Counted from the stretch's first letter, positions 1,848-46,799 are shown. The stretch: DNA of 64,000 nt from Deltaproteobacteria bacterium (GCA_029858205.1 JAOUFM010000003.1:210936-274935); one strand, 5' to 3'. Notes: generated by a model from the sequence alone, not told the origin. A program made the numbers and translations.

Positions 1848-1864
1848 CGTATACTTCGGATCAT

Positions 1865-4460: not shown

Positions 4461-4469
4461 CCGGTGGCG

Positions 4470-6249: not shown

Positions 6250-6264
6250 ACCACCCTTTTGTTT

Positions 6265-7065: not shown

Positions 7066-7080
7066 CTATACAATTCTCCT

Positions 7081-7802: not shown

Positions 7803-7906
7803 TATCTCTCCTCTCTGTCTTCTTTGATATTACACGCTCGCGCAACGGACCACAACAGCGCATTGTCTGCCGCCCTCGCGGTACAAAAACCCTTGCAACA
7901 TGTTTT

Positions 7907-8689: not shown

Positions 8690-8744
8690 TATTTGCCTCT
8701 CGATTGCCGTATTTATCTAAGCCAACGGCGCACATCGGCTTGTA

Positions 8745-9893: not shown

Positions 9894-9920
9894 ATAATAT
9901 CCGGCTCCACCTCGCTACAC

Positions 9921-12257: not shown

Positions 12258-12264
12258 ACTCGTA

Positions 12265-13089: not shown

Positions 13090-13092
13090 AAA

Positions 13093-14034
<942 letters not shown>

Positions 14035-15171: not shown

Positions 15172-15172
15172 T

Positions 15173-15874
15173 CTATTCTCCCGGATTGTTTTTTATTATA
15201 GTAGGCCTCTCGGCCCAGCGTTTCTTATCGACAAAAACGGTGTTAACGAACGTATCGCCGCAGACGATATATCCATTACGCTCCATCACCTTGAATATTT
15301 CATCGTTCTTCCTGTTCTCGTTATAATAAACGGTCTCTATGCAAAACACCTCGGGTCTGTACTTCTTGAAATCGAAACTCTCGAGTATCTCGACCTCGAG
15401 GCCTTCGACGTCAATGGTTACAAGGTTCGGGCATTTATCGAAATATTTTTCGATTATCCCGTTTATGGGCACGACATTTATCTTCAACACCTTCGGCTCG
15501 CCGCTGCCAATACTCTTGTAACGCTCCATGGTTTCCCTGCTGCAGGTGCTAAGTGTTGTGCCGCCCGGTATAACGTAAAAATCAATGACCCCTGCCTTTG
15601 CCGCAACGCCGACATTAAGATTAACGTCCCTTCTTCTCTTAAAACCGAACTTGGCGAAAAGCTCCGGGTCTGGCTCCACGTTCACGCCCTTGCATCCGTT
15701 CTTGTAAAAATAGTACGTGTTACTGAACTTAACGGGGTCGTGCGCGCCGACATCAAGATAAGTGGGTTTACGTATCTTTAACGCCCTCAAGATGAAATCC
15801 GCAAGCACGTCCTCGCCTGCCTGGGCGTAAGATCTCTTATAATCTCTTTTGAATATATTCCTTATGAATTTCAT
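15173..15874 (-). CDS. FkbM-family methyltransferase
   Basis: '[16 protein letters not shown]' motif. Confidence 0.7.
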
Positions 15875-15891
15875 CTCATTGAACTCCGGCC

Positions 15892-17217
15892 CTACGCCGG
15901 CACCACCTTTTTGCTTTTAAATTTCCTTGCCGCGCCTCTTGCATCCACCACTATCTTGCTGTTAACAGCTATCATCTTATAGTCGTAACACGTATGGTCC
16001 GTGGATATGACGACGCAATCGTATTTCTTTAACGCCGCGGGGGTAAGTTTCACGGACTTAAGTTCGATTGCATGGTGCCGCATCCTCGGCATCTTCGGCA
16101 CATAGGGGTCGTTATAATCCACCTTTGCGCCAAGCCCCTTTAGCATTTCTATGATATGCACGGAAGGAGACTCCCTCATGTCATCCACATCTTTTTTATA
16201 CGCCGCTCCGAGCACAAGGATACGCGAGCCTTTGACGGACTTGCCTTCCTTGTTTAGCGCTGTACCGACCTTCCCAATGACATAAGAAGGCATGGAGGTG
16301 TTTATCTCCCCGGCAAGCTCTATAAAGCGCGTTGCGAACTCGTACTCCTTCGCCTTCCACGTAAGGTAAAACGGGTCTATGGGAATGCAATGCCCGCCAA
16401 GGCCCGGGCCCGGATAAAAGGCCTGGAACCCGAAGGGCTTGGTCTTCGAGGCATCGATGACCTCCCATATGTCAATGCCCATCTTATCGGTAAGCATCTT
16501 AAGCTCGTTTACAAGCGCTATATTGACGCAGCGATATATATTCTCGAGAAGCTTTGTCATCTCTGCCGCGCGCGTGGTAGAGACCTCTACCACCTTATCT
16601 ATAATCTGCGAGTACAACAGACTGCCCGCTGCCAGACAATCCTTTGTAACACCGCCAACCACCTTGGGAATCGTCTTTGTCGAAAAATCCTTTCTCCCCG
16701 GATCTTCCCTTTCGGGCGAGAATACAAGGAAGTAATCTTTGCCGACACGAAGCCCTGTTTTTTCGAATTCCGTAAGAAGTATTTCGTCGGTTGTTCCGGG
16801 ATAAGTAGTGGACTCAAGAGAAACAAGCTGGCCTATTCTAAGGCGCTCCACTATCTCCTTTGTCGTACCGACAACATAGCTCATATCCGGCTCGCGCATC
16901 TTACCCAGCGGCGTAGGCACGCATATGATGACCGCATCCGGCTCCTTAAGCCTGTTCATGTCAGCGGTCGCGGCAAACTTCTTTCCCTTGACATGTTTTG
17001 CGATATCCCCTGCGGCTATGTGCTTTATGTAAGACCTTCCGGCATTGAGCGCCTTTACTTTGGACGAGTCAACATCGAACCCGAGCACCCTGAAGCCTTC
17101 GTCGCAGAACCTGAGTACCAGCGGCAACCCGACATAACCAAGCCCGATAACGCCTATGAGCGCGCTTCGTTTTTCTATTTTTTCAAGCAGTTTTTCTTTT
17201 ACGATATTTTTCGCCAT
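15892..17217 (-). CDS. Nucleotide-sugar dehydrogenase (UDP-GlcNAc/ManNAc 6-dehydrogenase family, WbpA/TviB-like)
   Basis: '[13 protein letters not shown]' Rossmann motif, catalytic 'GGHCIPID', 441 aa. Confidence 0.75.
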
Positions 17218-17253
17218 AGCACCTCATTTAAAGCCGTTTCTCAGGATTTTTTC

Positions 17254-17919
17254 TCAAACCTGTCCTTTTTTGCTGATGTCTATGATCCGTGCCTGAACAA
17301 CCCCTGCCTCTATCAATGCCTTCGAAAGTTCCGCGCTTCTATAAAACGAAGTTATTACTATGGCCTCGGCTGCGCCGTCCCTGAGCTTTTCAATACCGAC
17401 AACCGGCATATCGAAAAACTTTTCGGTTCTTTCGATATCCGAAATGCAGACAAGCTCCAACCCGGCCTCCTTTAAAGACAGATACGCTATCTCGGCAACC
17501 TCATCTACGCCGCAGAAAGCGACTCTGCTTATGCCAAGCTCCTTCAACCTTGCAAACAGTTCAGCGAAATCCGTCCTCGCAACCCTGTAGAGGTTGGTAA
17601 AATTCCTCAGATGTTCGTAGGTGAGACGGGTCTTTTCAAGAAAACCATTTGGCGTAAGATAATATTTGTAGCGCTTTGCGGGAATACCGGAGACTGTTAT
17701 GTAACCTTTTGAAATGAGATTCTTTATGTAGGAATTTATGAGTCCCAGCGCAATACCGAGGTTTTTGCTTATTTCACGCTGGGTTAGGTCGCCGTTTCGC
17801 GATATCTCGTCAAGCACGAGAAGCGAACGGTACCCATCCATATGGCCGTTTTTATCCTCGCTGTTCATACTATGAACATACCATTTAATCAGGCATTTTG
17901 TCAAGTAAAACGCGTTCAT
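17254..17919 (-). CDS. Winged-helix transcriptional regulator with a C-terminal Rossmann-like domain. It is the last gene before the glycan cluster and divergent from the novel cassette.
   Basis: 'LDEISRNGDLTQREISKNLGIALGLINSYIKNLISKGYITV' wHTH. The real start is possibly the internal Met at 17868. Confidence 0.45.
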   Translation of the reverse strand: MNAFYLTKCLIKWYVHSMNSEDKNGHMDGYRSLLVLDEISRNGDLTQREISKNLGIALGLINSYIKNLISKGYITVSGIPAKRYKYYLTPNGFLEKTRLTYEHLRNFTNLYRVARTDFAELFARLKELGISRVAFCGVDEVAEIAYLSLKEAGLELVCISDIERTEKFFDMPVVGIEKLRDGAAEAIVITSFYRSAELSKALIEAGVVQARIIDISKKGQV

Positions 17920-21377: not shown

Positions 21378-24161
21378 ATGACGATAGAGAACTTCTTCAG
21401 GGACAATTCCGGCATAGCGCGCACAAGCGCAGTTGAGCAGCGCGACGCGGCGCTAAAATACCTGCGCTCGCTGCCAGAGTCTAGCGACAGGGCCGAGGAC
21501 TTCAAATCGGCGTACGCGTACATACGAAACATCAGCGACGCCGAAGAAATGCGAAACGCACTCATCGAGCTTGCCATCACGATGCCAAAGCACGGCCCGT
21601 GCATGGACCTGTTTAAAGAAGTGTTCCCCGGCGCCATCAACTCCACAGACGCCATACCCGAGCCCATACACCGCAAATCAACGCTTACGCGCCTTGTAGA
21701 CTGCGTGCCCGACAAACCGGAGTACGCCGAGGCATACGCGCGCGTCGTGGAAAAATACATCGAGGCCGCAGACAAGATAGACGACCGCTTTGCGCGGCGC
21801 TACGCGCTTGCGGAAATTGCATCGAGACTCAAACACAGGGACGAATACGAAGCCCTCATGCTCCATGCCATGAAGGTGAGCCTCGGGTTTGCCGGCCTTC
21901 CGGGCTTTAGGCAATACTCGCTTCCCGAGATAGCAAGGGAACTTCCGAAAAGCTGCGACGTGGAGGTCTACAGAAACCACACATTCCTCGGGCTTGCGTT
22001 CTCGCTGCCGCACAGGGGCGAGTTCCTCGAACTCTTCAAAAAGGCCCTGACCACGGCCATCGAGTCAACGGAGCACATCGTTGAGCCGTATTACAAGAAA
22101 TACGCCCTTCTCTTCATGGCCAACAGGCTGCCCGAGACAGCAGAGTTTTTACCGCTAAGAAAGAGCGCTTTCAGGGCCGCCCTTGCCTCGGTCGACACGC
22201 TCGCCGACAGCTTCGCCAGGCAGTACGGATATAACGAATTCCTAAAGGACGTGCCAAAGACGCGCGAATTCTCCGACATACTGCTCGATACGGTCGAGAA
22301 GAGCCTTCCGTTCTTTTCTCTAAGAAGCCAGATGTCGGACTACGAGCCCATAGAGATACTCGACCGGATACTGATCGTCGCGGACAAAAAAATATCGGAT
22401 TCGAAGAAAAAACATTACACCCGCTTCCATTACGCCGATTTTTTCCTGAAACAGCTGAACCTGATAGCCGATAACTTAAACGATGTGCGCCTTCTGGAAA
22501 TTCTAAGGCCCTACACGCACGTATGGGTAAGGCCAAAAACTTTCAGGGACTCGATACGCAAGGTGTTCGACAAGGTCTCGTCCTTAAAAGGCAGATACCA
22601 CGGCGCCGAAGTAGAGCGTCCACTTTATGTCAGCGAGGCATGCCTCGGCATAGACAAACGAAGCCGCACGGCATCCGTTATGGCGGATACGCGCGAAGGC
22701 TACGCGCTCTCGATAGACCTTGGCGCCACCAATACCGTTGTAATGCTTAAAAAACCCGGGGCATTCCCGGAATTCGTCAACATAGAAGGATTATCCGAAA
22801 CCATCGGAAGCGTTGCCTTCATAAGCACGGCAGTAGACAAGAACAACGACTTGATAGGCGCTGCGGCGCCGGCCCAGTCGCGCTCGAACAACATAAAAAA
22901 ACTGTTCATGGAAGGCGACGAAGAGGGGCGCGAGCTCATCGAGAAGTTTTTCCGCATCCTGTACTCCAGAATAAAGGAATCTGTCGAGGTGCCCGGGTTT
23001 TTCAAGAAACTTTCCGGCAGGATTTTCGATACCGTTTCCGTGACAGTGCCGGTCGGGTATACGGATTACAGCGGCGAACTTACCAGAATCATCGAAAAAT
23101 ACGCGGGCAGCGCGCGCATAAAGCTCGTGGAAGAGCCGCTTGCTGCGGCGATAGGCTATAACGTGGCGGAGAAAAAGGAAAAATTCGTCCTTGTTCTCGA
23201 CTTTGGCGGCTGCACGCTCGACCCGATGCTTTTAAGGCTCTCTACCGACATGACACACGTCATAGCAAAGCCCGACAGATCCAAGATGCTTGGCGGGCGC
23301 GACATAGACCGCTGGGTGGCCGAGTACGTGAACGAAAAGCATAACCTTAGGACCAACCCTTCGGGGCACGAGGCCCTGACTGCGGCAGAGGCGCTGAAAA
23401 TAGAACTTAGCGCCAAAAACTCGGCGAAGTTCGTGTTTGGCGGCCGCGATATCGCGGAACTTACGCGCATAGAGTTCGAGGAGCTTCTCTCGCGCAGAGG
23501 GTTCTACAGCGACATAGACAGGGAACTTTCGAACGTGCTAAAAAAGGCTTCGAAGCTCGGCGTTTATAAATCCATGATAGAGGCCGTCATCATAACCGGG
23601 GGCTCTTCGCAGATACCGTCGTTCAAGGAAAAGATATCTCACTACTTCCACAACCTGGCCGTGCAAAACGCGATATACGACCACAGCCCGCTGTCGTCGG
23701 TCGCAAGGGGCGCGGCCCTCTACGGCACGGCCTCGGTGCTGGACCGCCACCTGGCCATGGCGTACGCAATAAAGCACATTGCAAGGGAAGAGGAAAAACA
23801 GTTTGCCTACGAAATCGTACTCGAAAAGGGCGAATCGCTTCCGTTCAAAAAGACCTTGCGCTTTACTCCTGCCATGACGCTCGGTGGACAGAAGGAAATA
23901 TTTCTCGAACTCTTCGAGGTGCCCGATTCCCTTATCGTACGGCGCTGGATATCCGAGGGCGGCATGGAGTTCATAAAGCAAATACTTAAGCACACGCCCG
24001 ACGAACTCGATCTGAGGGCTTTCAAGACCGTCACGCTTTCATTCGACGCTCCTATAGAAGGAAGCACAGACATCACATTTATAGTGGAAGAGAACGGACG
24101 ATTGAAGGTGCGCTACGAAAAAGACGGCCGCGAACTTGCAACCGACATACACCTTCAGTAA
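21378..24161 (+). CDS. Large Hsp70/actin-fold ATPase with a ~430-aa N-terminal alpha-helical repeat domain
   Basis: Hsp70 phosphate-1 'IDLGATNTVV', phosphate-2 'VLDFGGCTLDPML', adenosine motif 'VIITGGSSQIPSF', 'LVEEPLAAAIGY'; 927 aa. Confidence 0.75.
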   Translation: MTIENFFRDNSGIARTSAVEQRDAALKYLRSLPESSDRAEDFKSAYAYIRNISDAEEMRNALIELAITMPKHGPCMDLFKEVFPGAINSTDAIPEPIHRKSTLTRLVDCVPDKPEYAEAYARVVEKYIEAADKIDDRFARRYALAEIASRLKHRDEYEALMLHAMKVSLGFAGLPGFRQYSLPEIARELPKSCDVEVYRNHTFLGLAFSLPHRGEFLELFKKALTTAIESTEHIVEPYYKKYALLFMANRLPETAEFLPLRKSAFRAALASVDTLADSFARQYGYNEFLKDVPKTREFSDILLDTVEKSLPFFSLRSQMSDYEPIEILDRILIVADKKISDSKKKHYTRFHYADFFLKQLNLIADNLNDVRLLEILRPYTHVWVRPKTFRDSIRKVFDKVSSLKGRYHGAEVERPLYVSEACLGIDKRSRTASVMADTREGYALSIDLGATNTVVMLKKPGAFPEFVNIEGLSETIGSVAFISTAVDKNNDLIGAAAPAQSRSNNIKKLFMEGDEEGRELIEKFFRILYSRIKESVEVPGFFKKLSGRIFDTVSVTVPVGYTDYSGELTRIIEKYAGSARIKLVEEPLAAAIGYNVAEKKEKFVLVLDFGGCTLDPMLLRLSTDMTHVIAKPDRSKMLGGRDIDRWVAEYVNEKHNLRTNPSGHEALTAAEALKIELSAKNSAKFVFGGRDIAELTRIEFEELLSRRGFYSDIDRELSNVLKKASKLGVYKSMIEAVIITGGSSQIPSFKEKISHYFHNLAVQNAIYDHSPLSSVARGAALYGTASVLDRHLAMAYAIKHIAREEEKQFAYEIVLEKGESLPFKKTLRFTPAMTLGGQKEIFLELFEVPDSLIVRRWISEGGMEFIKQILKHTPDELDLRAFKTVTLSFDAPIEGSTDITFIVEENGRLKVRYEKDGRELATDIHLQ

Positions 24162-35394: not shown

Positions 35395-35769
<375 letters not shown>

Positions 35770-35774
35770 TTATA

Positions 35775-35791
35775 TTGCAAGCACCGTGCCT
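35775..35791 (-). promoter_or_regulatory. Sigma-54 (-24/-12) promoter for glnB-glnA: aGGCACGgtgcTTGCA on the minus strand
   Basis: GG and GC elements at the canonical 12-nt spacing, about 40 nt upstream of the glnB ATG. Confidence 0.5.
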
Positions 35792-35843
35792 AAATCTAAC
35801 AGCTTGATTTTATTGGATTTTATCCCGACAAGCCCGCAGCGCC

Positions 35844-35860
35844 TGCCTAAAAAATAGGCA
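35844..35860. promoter_or_regulatory. 17-bp dyad TGCCTAAAAAATAGGCA about 65 bp upstream of the sigma-54 -24 element. Candidate enhancer-binding (NtrC-like) site.
   Basis: Perfect inverted repeat read in the sequence. Its position fits an activator site for the divergent glnB promoter. Confidence 0.3.
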
Positions 35861-35933
35861 TTATTCGGGATATCTGTGTCAAATTTAATCAGGGTTGTTG
35901 ATTAATGGTGCATACTTCTGCTAATCTTTTTAT

Positions 35934-36440
35934 ATGTCCATGCGCATTATGATAGACGGATACAACCTTATAGCGACGATGTTCCCGGACGCTCTCTCCG
36001 GCGACCTCGAGGCAAAGAGAGAACAGCTCTCAGCCTCGCTCTCTGCCTACAAAAAGCTTCGCGGCGTAAAGATAACCATCGTGTTCGACGCCCAGGGAAG
36101 CGGCAGGCTTACGGAAGGAAGCTTTAACATAAAAGGCGTGTCGACCGTATTTACCGCCAAAGAAACGGCAGACGACTATCTTAAAAAAGCCAGCGTGGAA
36201 TTCGGAGGCGGCCTGACGATAATAACATCGGACAACGACGTTGCCGGCTTTGCGGAAAAAAATGGAGCTGTGGCAATATCTTCGGAAGAGTTCGCACGGA
36301 TACTGGAAAACGCCCTTTACTACGAAATAAAGGGCGTAACCGAAGAGGATGAGGAAGATAGTTGCGGAAATAAAAAAGGCCCGTCAAAGAGGCCTTCCAA
36401 AAAAGACCGGGCGCATAGCGCCCGCCTGAAAAAACTCTGA
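35934..36440 (+). CDS. YacP-like NYN-domain (PIN-like) ribonuclease
   Basis: 'IMIDGYNLIATMF...' NYN fold; basic C-terminal tail. Confidence 0.7.
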   Translation: MSMRIMIDGYNLIATMFPDALSGDLEAKREQLSASLSAYKKLRGVKITIVFDAQGSGRLTEGSFNIKGVSTVFTAKETADDYLKKASVEFGGGLTIITSDNDVAGFAEKNGAVAISSEEFARILENALYYEIKGVTEEDEEDSCGNKKGPSKRPSKKDRAHSARLKKL

Positions 36441-36452
36441 CAAAAGACTATC

Positions 36453-38174
36453 TTACTTATCGGGCCCTATAGTCTGAAGTTTCAACGGTGCTGCTGCTTT
36501 TTCTATCTCGGCTGCCGGCAAACGCTCGCCCTTTTGTACTCTATCTCCGAGCGTACTATAATACTTCACCTTTTCCGGCAACTCTTTTATCACATACAAC
36601 AATGCAAGACATCTATACGCCCAGGGGTCTTTCGTATCATTTAACAATACCGCTGTTTTAAAATCGATTTCCGCCTTTTCCATATCCCCTTTTTTATTTC
36701 TTCTTTGAAAAGCATTGCCTCGCATAACATAGTGATTCCATGCTTTAGGGTTCGCCTTTATGCCTTCATTGTAGTCTATGATTGCTTCATCAAGCCTGTT
36801 TATACGGAAAAAATAATACCCCCGCTTAATACGGCTAAGGACTATCGCATCGGCATTTCCTTTGCCGACGTAGGAAAGCTCATGTGTCCAAAATGAGTAA
36901 TCGTCTCTCCAAATATTTATCTGGGACGAAGTCTTCATGGTAAGCAAAATCACGATAGCAGCCGCAATGGCTATCGCCCCGGCCTTTACAACGCGCATTT
37001 CTCTGTAACCGTAAAACGCCGCGAGCGCCGCGCCCACAAGCAGAAATAACGACAAGGATGGCAGATACATATACCTATCGGCCGCCACCTGCCCGCCGAC
37101 CTGAACAATACCGATAACAGGCAACAGCGTTATAACGTAAAAAGCCCACGCGGCGAGAAAATATGGCCGCTTTTTACAATACATAACACCAATCGCAGTT
37201 ATAAACCCAAAAAAGGATATTGCCAACAAGGTTTTTCCTGACCACAGAGATATATCTACGCTGTGCGGATAAAACGGCATAAGAACGTTCGGAAAAACGG
37301 TTTTTTCAAGGTAAAACACATAGGTCTGAAACATATGCGCCGCCCTGACAGACATCGGTTTGACCTCTAACGGCGCTATTGCACTCTTTTGGGCCATTAT
37401 GGTCGTAAGCGACACGGCAAGACTTAGCATTATAAACGGCACTTTGTTTACCGCTTCACTTATAAGATTCTTGAAACTATTTAGCCTCCCTAACGGATAG
37501 AAATCCAGTATAAGCAAAGTCACCGGTATGGAAACCGCCATCGGCTTGCTCATCATAGACAACACACAAAAAAACAGAGAATACGCATAAGCCCCGCCCC
37601 TGCTTGCCGATTCACCCGTTTTATAGCGAATATAAAACAACAGACAAAGAACATAAAACACCGCACAAAGCACATCCTTGCGCTCCGATACCCAGGCAAC
37701 ACTTTCCACATGCAACGGGTGTATGCCAAACAACATCGCGCAAACAAATGCGGCAAAAAATAGCCTGAACCTATCTGTCTCTTTGTTCAACACAACGGAT
37801 AACAGCTTATACCCGAACCAGAACACAAGCCCTGTGGCAATGGCATGCAAAGCTATATTCGTAAGATGATAGCCCATGGGATCCAAACCCCAGATCATAT
37901 AATCGAACTTATATGACAAATTAGTAAGCGGGTGCCAATTACCGGGATGCATAGAGGTAAATGCGGCGAAAATAAAATCCCACCCGTTTTGGGAAAGTAG
38001 TGGATTGTTTAAGACATAATCATTGTCGTCCCAGTCTACAAAACCAAAGGTGATGGCTTTCAAATATACAACAAAGGTAAACAATCCGATTGCCAGCGAT
38101 ATTGCCGGAACAAACCATTTTTTAGCAGCACTGTCGGAATTACCTGATTTTTCAAATATACTATTATTTTTCAT
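36453..38174 (-). CDS. TMTC-like GT-C glycosyltransferase (DUF1736-type membrane domain + C-terminal TPR repeats), paralog 1
   Basis: Multi-TM N-half with 'NWHPLTNLSYKFDY...GYHLTNIALHA' and 'HPLHVESVAWVSERKDVL', followed by a C-terminal TPR region. Confidence 0.6.
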   Translation of the reverse strand: MKNNSIFEKSGNSDSAAKKWFVPAISLAIGLFTFVVYLKAITFGFVDWDDNDYVLNNPLLSQNGWDFIFAAFTSMHPGNWHPLTNLSYKFDYMIWGLDPMGYHLTNIALHAIATGLVFWFGYKLLSVVLNKETDRFRLFFAAFVCAMLFGIHPLHVESVAWVSERKDVLCAVFYVLCLLFYIRYKTGESASRGGAYAYSLFFCVLSMMSKPMAVSIPVTLLILDFYPLGRLNSFKNLISEAVNKVPFIMLSLAVSLTTIMAQKSAIAPLEVKPMSVRAAHMFQTYVFYLEKTVFPNVLMPFYPHSVDISLWSGKTLLAISFFGFITAIGVMYCKKRPYFLAAWAFYVITLLPVIGIVQVGGQVAADRYMYLPSLSLFLLVGAALAAFYGYREMRVVKAGAIAIAAAIVILLTMKTSSQINIWRDDYSFWTHELSYVGKGNADAIVLSRIKRGYYFFRINRLDEAIIDYNEGIKANPKAWNHYVMRGNAFQRRNKKGDMEKAEIDFKTAVLLNDTKDPWAYRCLALLYVIKELPEKVKYYSTLGDRVQKGERLPAAEIEKAAAPLKLQTIGPDK

Positions 38175-38217
38175 TTTTCAAACTGCTCCAACACAACGAT
38201 TTTTTTAACTTGCCGGT

Positions 38218-39909
38218 TTACTTACTACTTCTTGCGACCTTAACCGGATATGCCGCTTTTTCGATATCTTCAAAAGCAAGTTTCTCACCCTTCCTGATTT
38301 TTTCCCCAAGAGATCTATAATAATCCGCTTTTTTCAGCATCCCCGAAGCCGTATATAACTTCCCGAGCTTAAAAAAAGCATCAAAATGCACGCCCCTGTC
38401 AAGCGCCAGCATCGTCTTGTAATCTACAGCAGCCTTTTCGAAATCACCTTTGGCCACATAAGCATCGCCTCTCAACATATAATCTCCCGGAATTAATGCC
38501 GTCGGGCTCAAACCTGCATCGTAGGCCGCAATTGCCGCTTCATATTGCCCTCGCAAATAAAAATAACCTCCGATTTTTATAAGCGCAAGCTGCTTCATGT
38601 CCGCCGCTACAGCGAATTTATACTGGTGCATCCACATTGCACCGTCATCGCGCCATACCTCTATCTGCGCCGACGCCTGCACGCTCAAAAGAACCGTAAT
38701 AAAAACAGCACCGACTACGGCAGATATTTTGACTATCATTTTGCGCCCGCCGCCAAGCAATACTCCAAGCACGCCTCCGGCAAGCAAAAACAAACCAATC
38801 GACGGAATATACATGTACCTGTCCGCTGCTATCTGCCCCCCGACCTGCACCAATCCTATCACCGGCAAAAGCGTCAAAACATAGTACGCCCACGCGGCAC
38901 CGATATACGGTCTTTTTTTCATCCACAAAACACACGCTGCGGTTACGGCCAGGAGCACAAGAAAAGACACTACCGTTTCCGACGAAAAGTACTTGAACTC
39001 CGCAGTTTGCTGATAAAACGGAAGGAGCGGCTCGGGATAAAACAACTTCTTGAGATAAAAAACCCAGCTTTGTATCGCATTGGCAATGCGCGTCTCGCCG
39101 GTCTTGTATTCAAGCGGCACAATGGCGGTACTTTGCGCCAAAACGGTTATAACCGACATAATCGCGCTAAGCGCGAGAAATGGGGCCTTTCTCACGGTTT
39201 CTCTGACCAGGCTCTTAAACGTATCGATTGTTCTGAGCGGATAAAAATCCAAAATCAACAAAACCACCGGCAGCGTCACGGCCATGGCCTTGCTCATAAG
39301 AGCCAGCGTAAATGCGCTCAATGACAAGGCATAAAACCACGCGGCGCGGTTCCCCTGCGCTCCTTTGTGCTCAAGATAGAATATAACGCTTAAAACAAAG
39401 AATATCGCCGAAAGTTGATCCTTTCGTTCGGATATCCAAGCAACGCTCTCTACATGCTGAGGATGAACGCCAAACAGCACTGCGCAAAAAACCGCTCCAA
39501 CAAGCCTTCTACCGTCGTTCTCGGCACCTGAAAATACTATGCCCAAAACCTTATACCCGCAAATCAACACCAGCATGGTTGCCAGTGAGTGCAGCATAAT
39601 ATTCGTTAGGTGATACCCCATGGGGTCCAGGCCCCATATTGCATAATCGAACTTATAAGACAGCATCGTAAGCGGATGCCAGTTATCCATATAAAACCGC
39701 GTAAACACGGTTTGCGTGAATTCCCACCAATCTTTTTTCAGCAAAGAATTACGGACAACATAGAAATTGTCGTCCCAATTCACAAAATCGAAGGTAATTG
39801 CCTTTAGATACAGCATGAACGTAAAAAGCCCTACGGCAAATGCCGCACCCGACACAACGTACTTTCTCGTGTCGTACCCGTTTTTATTGTTTTCATAAAT
39901 TCCAAACAT
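38218..39909 (-). CDS. TMTC-like GT-C glycosyltransferase with TPR repeats, paralog 2
   Basis: Same motifs ('NWHPLTMLSYKFDY', 'HPQHVESVAWISERKD'). Confidence 0.6.
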   Translation of the reverse strand: MFGIYENNKNGYDTRKYVVSGAAFAVGLFTFMLYLKAITFDFVNWDDNFYVVRNSLLKKDWWEFTQTVFTRFYMDNWHPLTMLSYKFDYAIWGLDPMGYHLTNIMLHSLATMLVLICGYKVLGIVFSGAENDGRRLVGAVFCAVLFGVHPQHVESVAWISERKDQLSAIFFVLSVIFYLEHKGAQGNRAAWFYALSLSAFTLALMSKAMAVTLPVVLLILDFYPLRTIDTFKSLVRETVRKAPFLALSAIMSVITVLAQSTAIVPLEYKTGETRIANAIQSWVFYLKKLFYPEPLLPFYQQTAEFKYFSSETVVSFLVLLAVTAACVLWMKKRPYIGAAWAYYVLTLLPVIGLVQVGGQIAADRYMYIPSIGLFLLAGGVLGVLLGGGRKMIVKISAVVGAVFITVLLSVQASAQIEVWRDDGAMWMHQYKFAVAADMKQLALIKIGGYFYLRGQYEAAIAAYDAGLSPTALIPGDYMLRGDAYVAKGDFEKAAVDYKTMLALDRGVHFDAFFKLGKLYTASGMLKKADYYRSLGEKIRKGEKLAFEDIEKAAYPVKVARSSK

Positions 39910-40276
39910 TGGCTTATCTATCTTTTTAATTTTTTAGCCACACACTTCCATAAACATCAGCGCCGCCACTGCAACTGCGCCAGGTTTGTACCTCTTCGTA
40001 CTCCAATCTCCACGCGTGCTACACGCTTAATCAAACCGCCATACGACCGGCCGTTACTTCGTTCGTTTAGCCTATCATGGGAAAATCATACGCTCGGGGG
40101 AACAGCCGCCGGATCACCAGACGCTTTTTTGTAAATAACAGCGGCCTTTTTATCGTTAAGCTTCGAACCAACAACGCTTAAATTGCAATACGGTTCCTTG
40201 TACTTCGTGACGAGCTATGGTGCCTTCTTAAAACCACCGCGCACATCGACATGACATACGATTTATACCCAAAAAC

Positions 40277-42043
40277 TCACAGCCCCTCGCCTTTGGACGC
40301 TGCCTTCACTTCTATCTGCACCGGACTTACCGACACCCAGAACTCCTTATCAGAAAGAACCTCGCCTCGTGAAAGACGCATATTAAGACTCTCGTAATAT
40401 CGCGCCTTTTTGTCATTACCTGCGCCTCGAAATAACAATGCAAGATATTCATACCCGAATGCAGCCCAGGCCTTGTTAAGCGCTACGGCTACCTTATAAT
40501 CCAAAATAGCCTTGTCAATTTCACCCTTTTTTTCGTATACAGGGGCTCTGACAGCATATAATATCCAGTTCTCCGGATTGGCATTTATCGCCATCGTCAG
40601 ATCGGCAATCGCTTCATCGACCCTTCCTATGGAAAACAAATGCATGGCACGTTTCGCAAGCGGCAAAGGGAACACTTTGCCATCGAAATGCTCTATCTGG
40701 TGTGTCCAAAGCGTATAAGAATCCTTCCATATCGATATCTGAAAAGATGTTTTAATCGTCATAAGAACCAATAGAGCCGCTACTGTGACCGCGATACCGG
40801 CTTTCACCGGTTTTGCATGAGGCAATAAGAACAATAGCGCTGCCATACCGGCGCCTGCAATCAAAAACAGACCTATGGATGGTATGTACATATACCTGTC
40901 GGCAGCGGCCTGCCCTCCGACCTGCAATATGCCTATTACAGGAAGAAGCGTCAAAACATAACTTGCCCAGACGGCAGCTACGTACGGTCGGCGGCGCAAC
41001 CAGACGATACTGATGGCCGTTATGCCCAGAGCGACTACAGCCGAAACAATAACAGATACGGAAAAAAACGAAATATTTGGCGTGGGAGCATAATACGGCA
41101 ACAAGACATCCGGAATAAGAGCTTTCCTGAGATAAAAAACATAGGCAGACAACGCATGCGCCAAACGCATGGACAACGGCTTGGATTCCAGGGTCAGCAT
41201 CCCGTGTTTTTGTATCAATATGGTAACAACAGAAACTGCCGCACTAAAAACAAAGAACGGGATCTTATTTATGATTTCGGCGACCAATGTTTTTAACGAC
41301 GAAATTCTCATCAATGGATAAAAATCAAGGATAAGAAGAACAACGGGTAGCGTTACGGCCATTGGCTTACTTAACAACGCAAGAACAAAAGCGAAAAGGG
41401 AAAGCACATAAAAAGTCTTTTTTCTCACCTCATCGACATGACGATACCTAAGATATAAAACCATGCTCGCCACAAAAAATAATGCCGAGAGAATATCCTT
41501 ACGCTCGGATACCCACGCCACACTTTCAACATGTAGCGGATGTACTCCAAAAAGAATGGCCGCTATCGATGCGGCCGCTATCACGGCCCTCCGTCTATTA
41601 TCTCCTTTGAAAACAACAAGAAAAATCCTGTAACCGAAGACAAACACCAAGCCCGTGGCAACCGTATGCAGTATCACATTGGTCAAATGATACCCCATGG
41701 GATCGTCACCCCAAAAAATGTAATCGATCTTATACGACATCATCGTCAACGGATGCCAGTTACTGGCAAAGGTATAAATAAAAACATCGTTTAGGAAATT
41801 CCATCCGGTTTTCTCAAACAGGACATTCCCGAGAATATACTGATTATCGTCCCAGTTGACAAAACCAAAGGTAATGGCCTTGAGGTAAACAATGAAGGTA
41901 ACAAACGCGCAAAGCAGGCAAGCTACATACGCCGCCGACCTCGCATCGAGCATTCTTCCTACGATTCCTGTGCGCGCCGTGTCGACGCTTTTTCCCATTA
42001 AATTATCATTTTGCATTTTCATCCAAGCAGCAAGAAGTTCCAT
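40277..42043 (-). CDS. TMTC-like GT-C glycosyltransferase with TPR repeats, paralog 3
   Basis: Same motifs ('NWHPLTMMSYKIDY', 'HPLHVESVAWVSERKD'). Confidence 0.6.
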   Translation of the reverse strand: MELLAAWMKMQNDNLMGKSVDTARTGIVGRMLDARSAAYVACLLCAFVTFIVYLKAITFGFVNWDDNQYILGNVLFEKTGWNFLNDVFIYTFASNWHPLTMMSYKIDYIFWGDDPMGYHLTNVILHTVATGLVFVFGYRIFLVVFKGDNRRRAVIAAASIAAILFGVHPLHVESVAWVSERKDILSALFFVASMVLYLRYRHVDEVRKKTFYVLSLFAFVLALLSKPMAVTLPVVLLILDFYPLMRISSLKTLVAEIINKIPFFVFSAAVSVVTILIQKHGMLTLESKPLSMRLAHALSAYVFYLRKALIPDVLLPYYAPTPNISFFSVSVIVSAVVALGITAISIVWLRRRPYVAAVWASYVLTLLPVIGILQVGGQAAADRYMYIPSIGLFLIAGAGMAALLFLLPHAKPVKAGIAVTVAALLVLMTIKTSFQISIWKDSYTLWTHQIEHFDGKVFPLPLAKRAMHLFSIGRVDEAIADLTMAINANPENWILYAVRAPVYEKKGEIDKAILDYKVAVALNKAWAAFGYEYLALLFRGAGNDKKARYYESLNMRLSRGEVLSDKEFWVSVSPVQIEVKAASKGEGL

Positions 42044-42104
42044 CGTTTGACTAAACCATGTTATTATGACATAATTCGAAGACTAAATACATGCTAAAAC
42101 TCCA

Positions 42105-42869
42105 ATGCTCCGTGAACAAAAAATAGCCGTTGTGCTTCCGGCATACAAGGCCGAAAAAACCCTCGAGGCAACGTACAGGGAAATCCCTCTCGACATCGTC
42201 GACGAGGTAATCCTCGTCGATGACGGCAGCGCGGACAAAACCGTGGCTGTCGCAAAAACTCTCGGCATAAGGCACGTCATTGTCCATGAAAAAAACATGG
42301 GCTACGGCGCAAACCAGAAAACCTGCTACAAGGCCGCCCTTTCCCTCGGCGCCGACATAGTGGTCATGGTGCACCCGGACTACCAGTACACGCCAAAACT
42401 CATCACCGCAATGGCCGCCATGATAGTGTCCGGACACTACGACGTGGTGCTGGGATCTAGGATTCTCGGCAAAAGCGCCATCAAAGGCGGCATGCCGGTC
42501 TACAAGTACATCGCCAACCGGTTTCTTACGTTTACAGAGAACCTGCTGCTTGGACTGAAACTGTCGGAATACCACACCGGGTACAGGGCTTTTTCAAAGG
42601 ACGTACTCCTTAAACTCCCGCTCACCGAGAATTCGAACGATTTCGTCTTCGACAACGAAATGCTGGCGCAGGCGGCCTTTTTCAACTTTCGCATCGGCGA
42701 GATAAGCTGCCCCACAAAATACTTCGACGAGGCATCGTCCATAAGTTTTTCAAGAAGCGTTATCTACGGCCTCGGCGTACTTTCGACATCCTTCAAGTTC
42801 TTTTTAAACCGCATCGGCGTAAAGCAATTCCCTATCTTTTCCGAAAACGGCCGCAGACTTTTATCTTAG
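42105..42869 (+). CDS. GT2 polyprenyl-phosphate glycosyl (mannosyl/glucosyl) transferase, Dpm1/GtrB-like
   Basis: 'IAVVLPAYKAEKTL...ILVDDGSADKT' DXD-type GT2, 254 aa, soluble. Confidence 0.75.
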   Translation: MLREQKIAVVLPAYKAEKTLEATYREIPLDIVDEVILVDDGSADKTVAVAKTLGIRHVIVHEKNMGYGANQKTCYKAALSLGADIVVMVHPDYQYTPKLITAMAAMIVSGHYDVVLGSRILGKSAIKGGMPVYKYIANRFLTFTENLLLGLKLSEYHTGYRAFSKDVLLKLPLTENSNDFVFDNEMLAQAAFFNFRIGEISCPTKYFDEASSISFSRSVIYGLGVLSTSFKFFLNRIGVKQFPIFSENGRRLLS

Positions 42870-42920
42870 CCGCCGGTGTTTTAGTTTGCCGCCTTGCCCG
42901 GCCTCTGCTACAATCGTTAA

Positions 42921-44354
42921 ATGACGCCGCTCCTTCTCTCTAAAATAATCGAAGAACTATGGCCACAACTCGACGGCTCACTTGTAAGTTCCGTGCACCA
43001 GCCCGACGACAAGACCGTGCTGCTAAGGCTCATGACGCGGCGCGGCCAGAGGACGCTACTTGTATCCACGCATCCTCTTTTTTCGCGCCTTAATCTATTT
43101 ACGGAAAAGCGCGAGAACCCGGCAACCCCGCCGCGCTTTTGCGCGCTTCTTAGGAGCAGGATAGAAGGACTAAGAATCACGGAAATACGCCAAAAACCAG
43201 ACGAACGCATAGCCAAAATCGCTCTCGGCGACAATGCCTTCACGCTCGTAATGGAGCTTACCGGGAAATCCTCGAACATCATTTTACTCGACAATAAAGG
43301 GGTTATTGTCGATGCGCTAAGAATCTTCGCGCCGGAGACGTCGGTGCGAGCTGTAATGCCAGGAATAACTCTTGCCGCTCTTCCCAAACAAGAGATATTA
43401 AAAGAGTCCGCACCGAAAATCGAACCAGCGGACAACGAAACATGGAACGAAGCAGTTGAAAAATATTTTTCCGCAGCCGAGGAAAAGGAGAGATTTTTAA
43501 CGCTCAAAAAAAAGCTTCTTGGCGCGATATCGGGCGCGGCAAAGCACGCAAAGCGAAAGCTCGAAAACAGGCTTAACGACAAAACTGCCGCCAACAAAGA
43601 CCTGCTATCCTCCAAAACAGGCGACATAATATCGGCCAACCTTCATAAACTCAAAAAAGGCATGCACGAGGCTTTGCTTGCCGATATATATTCGGATACT
43701 AATAACGAAGTCTTGGTAAAGCTCGACCCGACGCTCTCTGCCTCGGAAAACGCGGCCAAATACTATAAACGCGCCAAAAAAGCCGCAACCGCGCTAAAAC
43801 TTCTTGAAAGGAGCATCCCGGAGGTCGAGGCTGAGATTCTAAAACTTGAAAATCTTACCAAAGAATGCGCGGCAATAAACACCGAAAAAGACGCTCTGAC
43901 GCTGGAGAAAAAGCTCATCGCCGCCGGATACATGAAAAAGGAAGAAACTCCTGGCGTAAGGAAGAAAGAGGCCTCGCTGCCCATACGCCAGGAAAAGACC
44001 TCGGACGGTTTTACACTTCTTATAGGAAAGAGCTCGAAAGGAAACGACCTGCTTATAAAGGAATACGCATCTGACGAAGACCTATGGTTTCACGCAAAAG
44101 GGATTGCCGGAGCGCACGTTGTTCTGAAATCAAAGGGGCGCGCAAAGCCTCCGAGTGAAAAAGCCATCCACGAAGCAGCCGTAACCGCGGCCTCCTCCTC
44201 TAAGGCATCTGCGTCGACAAAGCTCGAGGTAATATGCGCAAGCGTAAGGCACGTAAAGAAGCCCAAGGGCGCAAAGCCCGGAATGGTTACTGTAACCGAA
44301 TACAAAACCCTTATAGTAAAACCGGACAGGGCTCAGATAAAATCGAAGAAATAA
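42921..44354 (+). CDS. rqcH: NFACT-family protein (RqcH/FbpA-like ribosome-quality-control factor, short form)
   Basis: N-terminal NFACT-N ('...VSSVHQPDDKTVLLRL'), coiled-coil middle, C-terminal NFACT-R/DUF814 'WFHAKGIAGAHVVLK'. Confidence 0.65.
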   Translation: MTPLLLSKIIEELWPQLDGSLVSSVHQPDDKTVLLRLMTRRGQRTLLVSTHPLFSRLNLFTEKRENPATPPRFCALLRSRIEGLRITEIRQKPDERIAKIALGDNAFTLVMELTGKSSNIILLDNKGVIVDALRIFAPETSVRAVMPGITLAALPKQEILKESAPKIEPADNETWNEAVEKYFSAAEEKERFLTLKKKLLGAISGAAKHAKRKLENRLNDKTAANKDLLSSKTGDIISANLHKLKKGMHEALLADIYSDTNNEVLVKLDPTLSASENAAKYYKRAKKAATALKLLERSIPEVEAEILKLENLTKECAAINTEKDALTLEKKLIAAGYMKKEETPGVRKKEASLPIRQEKTSDGFTLLIGKSSKGNDLLIKEYASDEDLWFHAKGIAGAHVVLKSKGRAKPPSEKAIHEAAVTAASSSKASASTKLEVICASVRHVKKPKGAKPGMVTVTEYKTLIVKPDRAQIKSKK

Positions 44355-46264
44355 CGCCAGGTAAGCGCGGCATCGGTTGAGTAGATGCCGAAGGTGCGCT
44401 CCCTTTTTACTTCCAGCATAAGAGAATTGTTTTGCGAAAGCTTGACGCTTTGCAAGAGCGCGGCCTCGTAGGTCTTATGCGTATCGCCAAAGGCAAAGCT
44501 CGTTGCCCGCACATATAGATGCGCCGAGTACCTGCCCGCCGGGCTTAAAAGAAACCCGAGGGTCGCTCCGCCGCCAAGGGCATAACTATCTTCGAGCCTG
44601 CCGCTGATATCGAACATGCCGTCAACTGTAACATACGGCCTAAGGGCGCCGAAACCGGCCACATACCCTGCCCCGGCAGAGGTCCTGTACACCAGGTGGT
44701 CGTCCTTGTCCGGGAATATCCGTTGAACAAACCCGGTCCTAACCTTCCAGGAAAGCGGCTTAAAGAATATGTCGCGCGGGGTTAACGAAAGAATATTTAA
44801 AAAGTCGAAGTACTCGAGCTCCCCGTTATTTCTCTCCGGATAATGCCTGGCGCCGAGGCTGAAAAACTCTATCTGTGAGCCGTCTATGAAGCCTTCCTTT
44901 GGGTCAAGGAGGTTATGGTACGCTGGACGAAGCCTTATCTCCTCGTAAAAACGGCCGGAATCAGTGCCAATGCCAAGCGAGAAACTTTTTGAACGGTGCC
45001 CTGCCTCGGGCCCGGCAGGCGTTGGCACCGAATACACGTTCTCGCTTTTTTCGGCAATCGTTCCGCGCGCCTTGAGGATAGCGAGAAAACGCCTCTGAAA
45101 CTCGCCCTTTTCCATCTTTTCCTTTGTATAACGGTACTGCGAATATTCCGCCGCAAGGTCGAGTATTTCTATCTTCTCGGTTGCCGGGATGCCAGACGAC
45201 AGCACGCTTTCCGGCTCTATCTCTTTTTTCGCCACGGCAATGGCCGTTTTGGAACCGCTGCGGCCAACAAGCGAAGCGACATGACGTATTTTGGAGGATC
45301 TCGACGGACGGTACTCGACCTCCTTTATTATGCCGGAATCGCGTATTTTTCTTAGCGTATCAACCGGAATAACGGAGAATCCGAAACCGTCTGTAAGCCT
45401 AAGCTCCGGCCTCGCGGCCTCCATAGCGAACATAATGGTGTATGAACAGTTCTCGTCGAAGAAATAATAATATGTATACAGGTCCTTCATCTCCCAGAGA
45501 TGATACACCATCATCCTCACCTCGGCCTCCGTGAGATCGAGTTTATATTCCCACATGTCGCGCTGGTCCATGTCGTTATACTCCTGCACCTTCGTATAAT
45601 ACGGCAGGATGGAATAAAAGCCCTGATAATAACCGAAGACGCCTTTAAAGGCGTAGATAAGGCCGTTTGTGTCGGTCGGGAGCGCGGCATAATTGGCCGC
45701 AAAGGACACGAGCTTACTTTCCTTATCCGAATCTATTCTCAAAAATGTATGGCCAAACATCGAAGCCGGCGCGTTTATATGAGCGGCCGAAAACACCAGG
45801 GCCGCGCTCTTGGGATTTATATTGCGCATGGCCTCGTTGAACATGGCGCAGTTTATCGCAGGCAGTTTCGATACATCGATGGAAAGTTCTTTTATAAGCC
45901 ACTCGTGTCTGGCAACGAATCGACACCTCGGGTTTGTTTTCTCATCGGTCGAGGCGTCGAAAAGCGCGTCTATGGTTGCGTTAAGCTCTACCTCCGGGTT
46001 TCTCTTGCCTCCGAGGGCAAGAAAAAAGAACGGGTCGTCAACAAGGCTCTCCACGCCGCCGCGCACGGGCTTATAGTGCAAAAGGACTTCCCATGTCCTG
46101 CTCTGGGCAAGCTTTTTCTCCGAAGCCGCCTTTTTAAGCTCTGCTGCGTATGGATTTTCGTCTGAAAAACAAACGGAAGGAAATATCAAAACAGCCAGAA
46201 TAAGGCAAAAAAAGAGGGATACGCGCCGTGAAAATATCGCGTATCCCCTGAGAAGATGCTTCAA
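44333..46264 (-). CDS. Secreted hypothetical protein (DUF4105-like)
   Basis: Signal peptide, then 'SRTWEVLLHYKP' which recalls the DUF4105/Lnb N-terminal family; 643 aa. Confidence 0.35.
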   Translation of the reverse strand: MKHLLRGYAIFSRRVSLFFCLILAVLIFPSVCFSDENPYAAELKKAASEKKLAQSRTWEVLLHYKPVRGGVESLVDDPFFFLALGGKRNPEVELNATIDALFDASTDEKTNPRCRFVARHEWLIKELSIDVSKLPAINCAMFNEAMRNINPKSAALVFSAAHINAPASMFGHTFLRIDSDKESKLVSFAANYAALPTDTNGLIYAFKGVFGYYQGFYSILPYYTKVQEYNDMDQRDMWEYKLDLTEAEVRMMVYHLWEMKDLYTYYYFFDENCSYTIMFAMEAARPELRLTDGFGFSVIPVDTLRKIRDSGIIKEVEYRPSRSSKIRHVASLVGRSGSKTAIAVAKKEIEPESVLSSGIPATEKIEILDLAAEYSQYRYTKEKMEKGEFQRRFLAILKARGTIAEKSENVYSVPTPAGPEAGHRSKSFSLGIGTDSGRFYEEIRLRPAYHNLLDPKEGFIDGSQIEFFSLGARHYPERNNGELEYFDFLNILSLTPRDIFFKPLSWKVRTGFVQRIFPDKDDHLVYRTSAGAGYVAGFGALRPYVTVDGMFDISGRLEDSYALGGGATLGFLLSPAGRYSAHLYVRATSFAFGDTHKTYEAALLQSVKLSQNNSLMLEVKRERTFGIYSTDAALTWRYFFDFI

Positions 46265-46286
46265 TGGTATCTGTTCCGTGCCTTAA

Positions 46287-46799
46287 TTAGCCCTTGGTAA
46301 CCGCAACGATGTTGTCGATTACGTCGGCAGCTTCAACGTTCTCGGAGGTGTAGATGTTCGAGAAGTTGGACTGAAGTGTTGCGAAGAACTCGCCTCTCTC
46401 TGCGGTCGGTACGTTCATAAGCTCCGCGAGTGTGGAAAGGCTCTCGCCCGAACCCATTGCGATGTCGGAAGCGAGGTTGTCCATGTTCGAGGCAACGAAG
46501 GTGTTGACCTCATTGGAGGCTATCTTGTCAGCCTTTTTGCAGTTCGAGGTGCCGGAGGTGATGCCAAAGGTGCCGTTGCCGCAGGTGCCGTTAAGAAGCG
46601 TCATCGCGAGCTGGGCAAGGAGTGAATCGTTATTCTGGATAAGGACCGCTCCGAGACCGCAACCCGTGTTGGACTGCGCTGCTGCATTTGCTGCCTTTGC
46701 GTCACTTGCCGACATACCGAATACAACTGCTGCTGCCGCTGCTGCTACCAAATACTTTTTCATGTGCCAAACCTCCTTAGATAGATTGTTTTGTGACAT
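46287..46799 (-). CDS. Secreted Ala/Gly-rich hypothetical protein (DUF3015-like?)
   Basis: Signal peptide 'MKKYLVAAAAAAVVFGMSASDAKA', 170 aa; cotranscribed with the DUF4105-like gene. Confidence 0.3.
   Translation of the reverse strand: MSQNNLSKEVWHMKKYLVAAAAAAVVFGMSASDAKAANAAAQSNTGCGLGAVLIQNNDSLLAQLAMTLLNGTCGNGTFGITSGTSNCKKADKIASNEVNTFVASNMDNLASDIAMGSGESLSTLAELMNVPTAERGEFFATLQSNFSNIYTSENVEAADVIDNIVAVTKG

Follow-up and report, generated by a model that had tools for sequence, protein, structure and literature searches.

We describe three tandem genes, T1, T2 and T3, and a divergently transcribed fourth gene, GT2, in a 64,000-nt stretch of DNA from Deltaproteobacteria bacterium (GCA_029858205.1); this whole stretch is called the window here, and positions are counted along it. 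The best explanation of the locus, to which we assign a probability of about 0.6, is that GT2 is a polyprenyl-phosphate-sugar synthase that feeds periplasmic GT-C transferases of the TMTC type, the products of T1-T3. It is carried by homology of the membrane domains to animal TMTC proteins, a GT-C fold, conserved catalytic and phosphate-binding motifs, and a GT2/TMTC-like gene pair that is conserved in other genomes. All four genes are open reading frames (ORFs), those of the T1-T3 tandem being intact. T1 (36453-38174, 573 aa, locus tag OEV59_03940), T2 (38218-39909, 563 aa) and T3 (40277-42043, 588 aa) lie on the minus strand, and GT2 (42105-42869, 254 aa, PF00535) on the plus strand. A first-pass annotation, made from the sequence alone, had claimed three tandem paralogs and a divergent GT2 at 36453-42869, and the ORFs fall exactly there.

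TMTC homology of T1-T3

Direct family searches gave no match to the membrane half of these proteins: Pfam at E<=10 returned nothing for it in T1-T3, NCBIfam gave no direct family match, and PDB searches by phmmer with a single protein or with a 19-member profile returned TPR matches or nothing, none of them in the membrane half. PMT_2 was touched weakly by two of 19 homologs (Pfam, 6e-5). Homology was therefore shown with hhalign through a published alignment of animal TMTC N-domains, eight sequences of which we used (Eisenhaber et al., 2021; PMC7801869, supplement), with an alignment of 19 membrane domains as the query profile. The two aligned locally over 381 columns (Prob 99.9, E 3.5e-33, score 247) and globally, end to end, over 387 columns at 23% identity (Prob 100, E 6.8e-45), with scores of 245-247 in both modes; these E-values relate to tiny target sets, and the weight rests on the scores and on a control in which the TMTC alignment was reversed (Prob 0.4, score 19.7). 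The signal is therefore not transmembrane (TM) composition, and we rejected a compositional artifact of TM-rich profiles on the strength of that control (19.7 vs. 247). Taken singly, T1-T3 matched the TMTC N-domains by phmmer at 39-86 bits (T1 45-78 bits, T2 39-77 bits), and matched none of the partial ArnT, Pmt1 and PglB sequences in the same published file. By sequence, then, T1-T3 are members of the TMTC family, beyond mere GT-C likeness, in agreement with the TMTC-like architecture proposed at first pass.

The AlphaFold (AF2) model of T3 (confidence score pLDDT 89.9) has 11 TM helices, and its best non-TPR matches by Foldseek, all of them GT-C enzymes, are Pmt4 (9i5k, 5e-4), STT3 (8age), AglB (3wak), ArnT (5f15 and 5ezm) and Pmt1/2 (6p25); the TM-scores of about 0.4 are over the whole protein, TPR part included. 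Likeness to GT-C enzymes rather than to O-antigen ligase or Wzy had been set as a test beforehand. WaaL, PglL and Wzy structures are absent from the 50 Foldseek matches listed for T3, no Wzy_C or O-antigen-ligase domain was matched by Pfam at E<=10, and we rejected a ligase or Wzy identity. The membrane (catalytic) domain of T3, comprising TM1-TM11 and periplasmic loops EL1-EL5, spans aa 36-438 (40730-41938, minus strand), as delimited by AF2 helices, hhalign and the density of Lys plus Arg (K+R). The first 30 residues of the T3 model have low pLDDT, and its true start may instead be a downstream Met.

K+R density, measured over 40 sequences, is about 3.5-fold higher in loops predicted to be cytoplasmic (0.206) than in those predicted to be periplasmic (0.058); the clearest cytoplasmic loops are CL4 (WLRRRPY) and CL1. 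Given 11 TM helices and a cytoplasmic N-terminus, both the DD loop and the TPR domain would face the periplasm, and the TMTC alignment points the same way, the TPR domain of TMTCs having been described as lumenal. The helix count and the positive-inside bias thus favor the periplasmic TPRs of the first-pass annotation over cytoplasmic ones. The C-terminal helical repeat domain, predicted periplasmic, covers aa 442-572 of T3 (40328-40720, minus strand; Pfam, PDB, AF2). Pfam places TPR repeats near aa 450-530, one or two per protein; only T2 passes curated cut-offs (TPR_11, TPR_2), and the T3 matches (aa 462-521) are sub-threshold. TPR matches in PDB include HOP and OGT. In the T3 model eight helices (aa 442-572) form about 3-4 TPR-like repeats, so that a C-terminal TPR domain stands while its earlier description as an array was overstated. 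Many homologs are longer (650-830 aa), with far more repeats.

Two motif strings noted at first pass, NWHPLT(N/M)(L/M)SYK(F/I)DY and HP(L/Q)HVESVAW(V/I)SERKD, are present in all three paralogs. We measured conservation in 40 homologs that are 35-46% identical to T3. Invariant or nearly so are D65, D66, W96, P98, H168, P169, H171 and E173, together with R181, K182, K226, D382, R383, Y384 and Y386, and the motifs are therefore beyond chance.

Motif names M1-M7 follow PMC7801869, and TMTC1 was compared with T3. Kept in T3 are M1 (FV-HDD in TMTC1, FVNWDD in T3), HPxHxExV (HPIHTEAV, HPLHVESV), M3 (GRAD, ERKD) and M7 (AERVLY, ADRYMY). M2 is only partly kept (SHKSYRPL, ASNWHPL), M4 keeps its Lys and Thr with Glu changed to Pro (KETGIT, KPMAVT), M5 is lost (DW, YY), and the DNPA of DUF1736 has no counterpart. 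WDD of T3 (residues 64-66) is invariant in the 40 homologs and aligned to D52/D53 of TMTC1; the D65-D66 codons (41846-41851, minus strand) thus encode the GT-C catalytic 'DD' of loop EL1, an assignment based on conservation and the TMTC1 alignment. The DD of the first non-cytoplasmic loop is catalytic across GT-C enzymes, and in TMTCs M3 (RxD, EL2) and M7 (ERxxY, EL5) contact sugar and phosphate (Eisenhaber et al., 2021; PMC7801869). M4, as KE(T/Q)xxT, and M5, as DW, give the TMTC metal ligands E and D, which come from homology models with no solved TMTC structure behind them (PMC7801869); no TMTC structure was found in the PDB searches made here.

The 'DUF1736-like' label attached to the two motif strings at first pass has to be dropped. 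DUF1736 in TMTC1 is the TM7-TM8 loop, residues 284-358, and the strings lie outside it: NWHPLT corresponds to TMTC motif M2 in loop EL1, and HPxHVESVAW to M3 in EL2. Neither T1-T3 nor 19 homologs match PF08409 (DUF1736) at E<=10, because the equivalent loop is the divergent part. According to the AF2 model and the alignment, T3 does have such a loop (aa 278-328), with a JM3-like helix (290-309) and without DNPA; it is the least conserved outer loop among T1-T3 (39-47% identity).

Overall the three paralogs are about 47% identical in pairs, the membrane half at about 50% and the C-terminal part at 28-36%. EL2 and EL5 are the most conserved segments, at 81-90%. In a rough neighbor-joining tree of membrane domains T1-T3 cluster together on long branches, and their triplication is therefore old and lineage-specific. 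The tree led us to reject T1-T3 as ancient conserved paralog positions; in it, other genomes have a conserved U1/U2 (proximal/distal) pair instead. The lower C-terminal identity is consistent with diverged acceptor recognition. The first-pass annotation proposed distinct acceptor specificities for T1-T3; our sole hint of them is that the TPR part and the EL4 loop have diverged faster.

The GT2 gene and its neighborhood

The best sequence matches of GT2, all far under the curated family cut-offs, are polyprenyl-phosphate glycosyltransferases, as its early description as Dpm1/GtrB-like had suggested. Beyond PF00535 (Pfam, E 7e-21), its top NCBIfam match is PpgS (9e-20, nearly full length), then AglJ (5e-17), a halobacterial Dol-P-hexose transferase (2e-14) and PgfS; GpgS is weaker (7e-9). 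The best PDB sequence match is the Pyrococcus Dol-P-Man synthase (DPMS, 5mlz, 4.6e-7), with GpgS at 5.5e-4. Its AlphaFold model (pLDDT 87.5) matches ArnC, GtrB and DPMS by Foldseek (DPMS TMq 0.74), and soluble GpgS equally well. ArnC, GtrB and DPMS share the metal site DADLQ; residues 90-95 of GT2 read H-P-D-Y-Q-Y where DPMS has D-A-D-L-Q-H, so that the second Asp and the Gln (Q94) are kept, and H90, P91, D92 and Q94 are invariant in 25 orthologs. The family is unusually well conserved, its orthologs in Thermodesulfobacteriota, Bacteroidota, Leptospiraceae, Planctomycetes and Gammaproteobacteria being 62-76% identical, and no curated family name fits it. Taken alone, GT2 is probably a polyprenyl-phosphate-sugar synthase, to judge by its relatives.

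The linkage of GT2 to TMTC-like genes is kept in many genomes. A 254-aa GT2 ortholog (69-76% identical) adjoins TMTC-like genes in loci whose other neighbors differ; among four unrelated TMTC-like homologs looked up singly, two have it divergently beside them, at 69-71% identity. A scan for GT2 in one genome per GTDB species yielded 80 loci, spread over many phyla and 62-76% identical; in 19 of the approximately 26 closest loci (Thermodesulfobacteriota-type) TMTC-like genes adjoin GT2, mostly divergent, about 40-400 bp away and often two in tandem. A second scan, centered on TMTC-like genes in 80 metagenome loci, found two or more tandem copies in 27 and an ortholog-grade GT2 (316-549 bits) in nine, placed divergently, co-directionally or downstream. 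By chance, roughly 0.3% of random genes would have a given single-copy gene within 6 kb. In this clade, then, the two genes form a functional unit that is conserved. Tandem TMTC-like copies were also frequent in homolog look-ups, up to seven on one contig, and these gene counts suggest that many scattered GT-C paralogs share a single synthase.

Some related loci have features of their own. A 91-kb contig of JGI sample 3300075153 carries at least seven co-directional TMTC-like/TPR genes (538-693 aa) beside a multiheme cytochrome gene, an extreme case of tandem expansion. In GCA_040960315.1 (L003:6215-7888, minus strand, and 8001-9653, plus strand) a TMTC-like gene is divergent from a 557-aa PMT_2 (GT39/ArnT-like) GT-C gene, with no GT2 partner there. 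A double-zinc-ribbon Cys-rich protein of about 166 aa is encoded just downstream of the GT2 ortholog in 12 related loci (L005, L010, L012, L015-L018, L023 at 5063-5560, L025 and L027-L029), and also at L002:2648-3157; the window has no homolog of this gene, rqcH following GT2 there. Flavobacterium-type loci (L038, L061, L076 and L081, the last at L081:10169-11299) encode a conserved multi-TM protein of 378 aa, some 1.4 kb downstream of their GT2 ortholog; this protein might be an alternative lipid-sugar-using partner in that phylum.

We examined the non-coding parts of the locus. T3 and GT2 have 61 bp between their start codons (42044-42104), within which a sigma-70-like match (42047-42075, plus strand) points toward GT2; promoter-like matches in the region show no enrichment over shuffled sequence, and this one is only suggestive of a promoter. 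The T3/T2 spacer is 367 bp long (39910-40276) and yielded no recognized element by sequence read, Rfam and hairpin check, its hairpins being weak only; an Rfam search of 35500-43500 gave no match. T1 and T2 are 43 bp apart. Just past the T1 stop is a strong intrinsic-terminator-like hairpin with seven G-C pairs and a T run (36408-36424, minus strand). It overlaps the 3′ end of a convergent NYN/YacP gene (ending at 36440, T1 ending at 36453) and is probably a bidirectional terminator common to both.

The flanks on the T1 side are the housekeeping genes ispD, carD, glnA and glnB and the NYN/YacP gene, and on the other side rqcH/NFACT, an Lnb-like gene and DUF3015. The last two (44333-46799, minus strand) encode an Lnb-like protein of 643 aa (DUF7843, Lnb_N, DUF7840) and then a DUF3015 protein whose N-terminus is signal-like; they look like a conserved envelope gene pair and are also called in L001, a Logan-assembly copy of the region. 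Farther off, a 927-aa ORF (21378-24161, plus strand) has an Hsp70/MreB-like ATPase domain confined to residues ~550-785 and no Pfam match in its N-terminal 550 aa, and sits within strong positive AT skew (18-24 kb).

A long co-directional cluster (570-17919, minus strand) is typical of ABC-transporter-dependent synthesis of an O-antigen or capsule-like glycan. It holds Wzm/Wzt-like ABC-2 transporter genes and a MarR-type regulator; one GT4, three FkbM-type methyltransferases and two further SAM methyltransferases; a nonulosonic-acid pathway (CMP-sugar synthetase, NeuB, UDP-GlcNAc 2-epimerase); and GDP-mannose 4,6-dehydratase with an epimerase/reductase and a UDP-Glc/GDP-Man dehydrogenase. About 18 kb off, it is a possible sugar source or glycan acceptor for the TMTC-like enzymes.

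Proposed mechanism and alternatives

In the mechanism that we favor, GT2 would be a peripheral, cytoplasm-facing enzyme of the Dpm1/PpgS type, without a TM anchor of its own, that transfers one sugar residue to undecaprenyl phosphate from a nucleotide-sugar donor at the cytoplasmic face of the inner membrane. A flippase encoded elsewhere would move the lipid-sugar to the outer leaflet, and T1-T3 would pass the sugar to periplasmic acceptors. Their periplasm-facing active site would be made of DD (EL1), HPxHVESVAW-ERKD (EL2), K226 (EL3) and DRYxY (EL5), the lipid phosphate being held via K226 and R383/Y384/Y386 and the acceptor hydroxyl activated or positioned by D65/D66. The short periplasmic TPR domain would hold the acceptor and probably recruit it. 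The steps would follow the logic of an established three-component scheme (PMC11127046) together with the TMTC models (PMC7801869); the topology, the lipid-linked donor and any division of labor among T1-T3 we infer. Mannose as the sugar and proteins as acceptors are suggested by analogy only, and 'protein O-mannosylation' is no more than an analogy here.

Several observations weigh against this mechanism. On the transferase side, both metal ligands modeled for TMTCs are replaced in T3 (Glu to Pro in M4, DW to YY in M5), which may mean that catalysis in the bacterial enzymes needs no metal or relies on different ligands; in the literature searched we found no bacterial TMTC-like protein with demonstrated activity. 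A flippase candidate (GtrA, SMR or MATE-like, or a small multi-TM ORF) is missing from the window, and none was found among the conserved neighbors of related loci. On the GT2 side, every NCBIfam score falls far under its family cut-off (PpgS 71 vs. 370 bits), soluble GpgS/MpgS match the fold as well as ArnC/GtrB do by Foldseek, and in the DXD motif (H90-P91-D92, aligned to D89-A-D91 of DPMS) the first Asp has become His. GT2 has no TM segment, and only moderate amphipathicity is seen in helices 132-149 and 215-236 (hydrophobic moment, muH, 0.35-0.39), weak evidence for the interface helices that would be expected. TM-less synthases are nevertheless known: human DPM1, mycobacterial Ppm1 D2 and PpgS are proven polyprenyl-phosphate-sugar synthases that lack TM helices. 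Lastly, the GT2-centered scan found no TMTC-like neighbor of the GT2 ortholog in Bacteroidota, Leptospiraceae, Planctomycetes, Acidobacteriota and Gammaproteobacteria, nor any other consistently conserved neighbor there; GT2 thus does not work exclusively with TMTC-like enzymes in every lineage, and presumably serves other enzymes in other phyla.

We weighed three other explanations. The same chemistry could be directed at a glycan or lipid (lipopolysaccharide or O-antigen, exopolysaccharide, or a peptidoglycan-linked polymer), as in ArnT, GtrC-type and GT136 enzymes, the TPR domain docking on envelope-assembly machinery and not on substrate proteins. Where a bacterial GT-C enzyme paired with a polyprenyl-phosphate-sugar synthase has been characterized, the target is mostly a glycan or lipid A (PMC11127046). 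The structural matches of T3 include ArnT, one related locus adjoins a polysaccharide-export cluster (Wzz, Poly_export, Bac_transf), and the window has the glycan cluster at 570-17919. The sequences, however, match TMTCs, whereas the partial ArnT, Pmt1 and PglB comparators gave no match; TPR is a protein-binding module, whereas glycan-directed GT-C enzymes usually have domains of the carbohydrate-binding module (CBM) type; and the genes sit amid housekeeping glnA, glnB, carD, ispD and rqcH, 18 kb from that cluster. We consider a glycan or lipid acceptor unlikely, though it is the main rival.

It is improbable, in our estimate, that GT2 is instead a GpgS/MpgS-like or glycan-chain GT-A enzyme with a cytoplasmic soluble or membrane acceptor, so that the TMTC-like donor comes from another enzyme and the adjacency reflects co-regulation or shared ancestry only. 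Such a role would suit the Foldseek ranking of GpgS structures alongside ArnC, the want of a TM helix, the orthologs at 62-68% identity in many phyla with no TMTC-like neighbor, and the 71 of 80 sampled TMTC-like loci with no such GT2 nearby. Yet the sequence prefers synthases, PpgS (9e-20) over GpgS (7e-9) and DPMS (4.6e-7) over GpgS (5.5e-4), and adjacency is kept in 19 loci of varied flanks and arrangement where chance would give about 0.3% within 6 kb. Hardly credible is the proposal that T1-T3 are inactive, as membrane-anchored TPR scaffolds from a GT-C ancestor, or O-antigen-ligase/polymerase-like. Pfam, NCBIfam and PDB sequence searches do show TPR repeats only, and the putative metal ligands are missing, but the catalytic DD, RxD, K and (D/E)RxxY are invariant in the three paralogs and the 40 homologs, the periplasmic loops EL2 and EL5 are the most conserved (81-90% among paralogs), and neither Pfam nor fold gives a Wzy_C or O-antigen-ligase match. 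A synthase feeding TMTC-type transferases thus remains our preferred account.

A bolder proposal, which we hold only tentatively, is that this is a Gram-negative protein O-glycosylation system, one that would correspond in prokaryotes to the cadherin O-mannosylation of animal TMTCs and might even have given rise to it. One conserved undecaprenyl-phosphate-sugar synthase would feed lineage-specific TMTC-type arrays (of up to seven), whose divergent TPRs would select classes of periplasmic or outer-membrane proteins, with catalysis metal-independent or at another metal site.

Comparison with known systems

The family itself is known already, and the finding extends known families and adds no new principle. 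Eisenhaber et al. (2021; PMC7801869) noted full-length prokaryotic TMTC homologs and called them uncharacterized, giving as an example AMJ42_05695 of Deltaproteobacteria bacterium DG_8, which shares with T1-T3 its family, architecture and broad taxon (Deltaproteobacteria). Theirs was a BLAST observation only; we add that a GT2 partner is conserved, that tandem arrays are prevalent and that the motifs differ, none of which was described there. The family is large: the T3-type membrane domain alone, searched against 1.84 billion cluster-50 representatives, matched 82,116 at E <=1e-3, 48,918 at <=1e-10 and 17,381 at <=1e-30. Its tandem arrays are frequent in Thermodesulfobacteriota, Nitrospirota, Nitrospinota and related groups, and many homologs are labeled 'protein O-mannosyl-transferase' in JGI annotation, while the literature searched held no characterized bacterial TMTC-type enzyme.

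The GT2/TMTC-like pairing offers a concrete two-gene handle for reconstitution, by which sugar, lipid carrier and acceptors could be approached, and which would show whether protein O-glycosylation is widespread in these environmental lineages. It would also provide a tractable bacterial model for animal TMTC enzymes, and a way into a bacterial glycosylation system that is very common yet unstudied.

Polyprenyl-phosphate-sugar synthase, flippase and GT-C enzyme make up an established scheme of bacterial periplasmic glycosylation (PMC11127046). As in the GtrA/GtrB/GtrC, ArnC/ArnEF/ArnT and GT136 systems, a putative GT2-type synthase is encoded here beside a GT-C transferase predicted to act in the periplasm. 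Unlike in those systems there is no nearby flippase gene, and the GT-C enzyme is of the TMTC family with TPRs, where theirs have a CBM or no extra domain. Unlike GtrB and ArnC, the GT2 product lacks TM helices, and there are several GT-C paralogs per synthase. In actinobacterial Ppm1/PMT protein O-mannosylation and in PpgS/Rv3779, a TM-less GT2 makes the polyprenyl-phosphate sugar for a GT-C enzyme, as proposed here. Their GT-C enzymes are GT39 (PMT) or Rv3779, with no TPR, whereas T1-T3 are TMTC-type with TPRs; and PpgS, although the best NCBIfam match of GT2, is far from the family cut-off.

Animal TMTC1-4 are protein O-mannosyltransferases of CAZy family GT105 (PMC7801869). T1-T3 differ from them in a much shorter TPR domain (about 3-4 repeats). 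The animal proteins have about 8-12; their protein O-mannosyltransferase activity was reportedly described by Larsen in 2017, and to our knowledge direct proof of it is limited. In T1-T3 the DUF1736/EL4 loop is divergent (no PF08409, no DNPA, DW replaced by YY), the M4 Glu is Pro, a putative donor-synthase gene is adjacent, there are no cadherins to modify, and the carrier would be undecaprenyl phosphate in place of dolichyl phosphate. Common to both are an 11-TM GT-C N-domain homologous end to end (Prob 100, 23% identity), the DD, HPxHxExV, RxD, K...T and (E/D)RxxY motifs, a C-terminal TPR domain on the (here predicted) non-cytoplasmic side, and occurrence as multi-paralog families.

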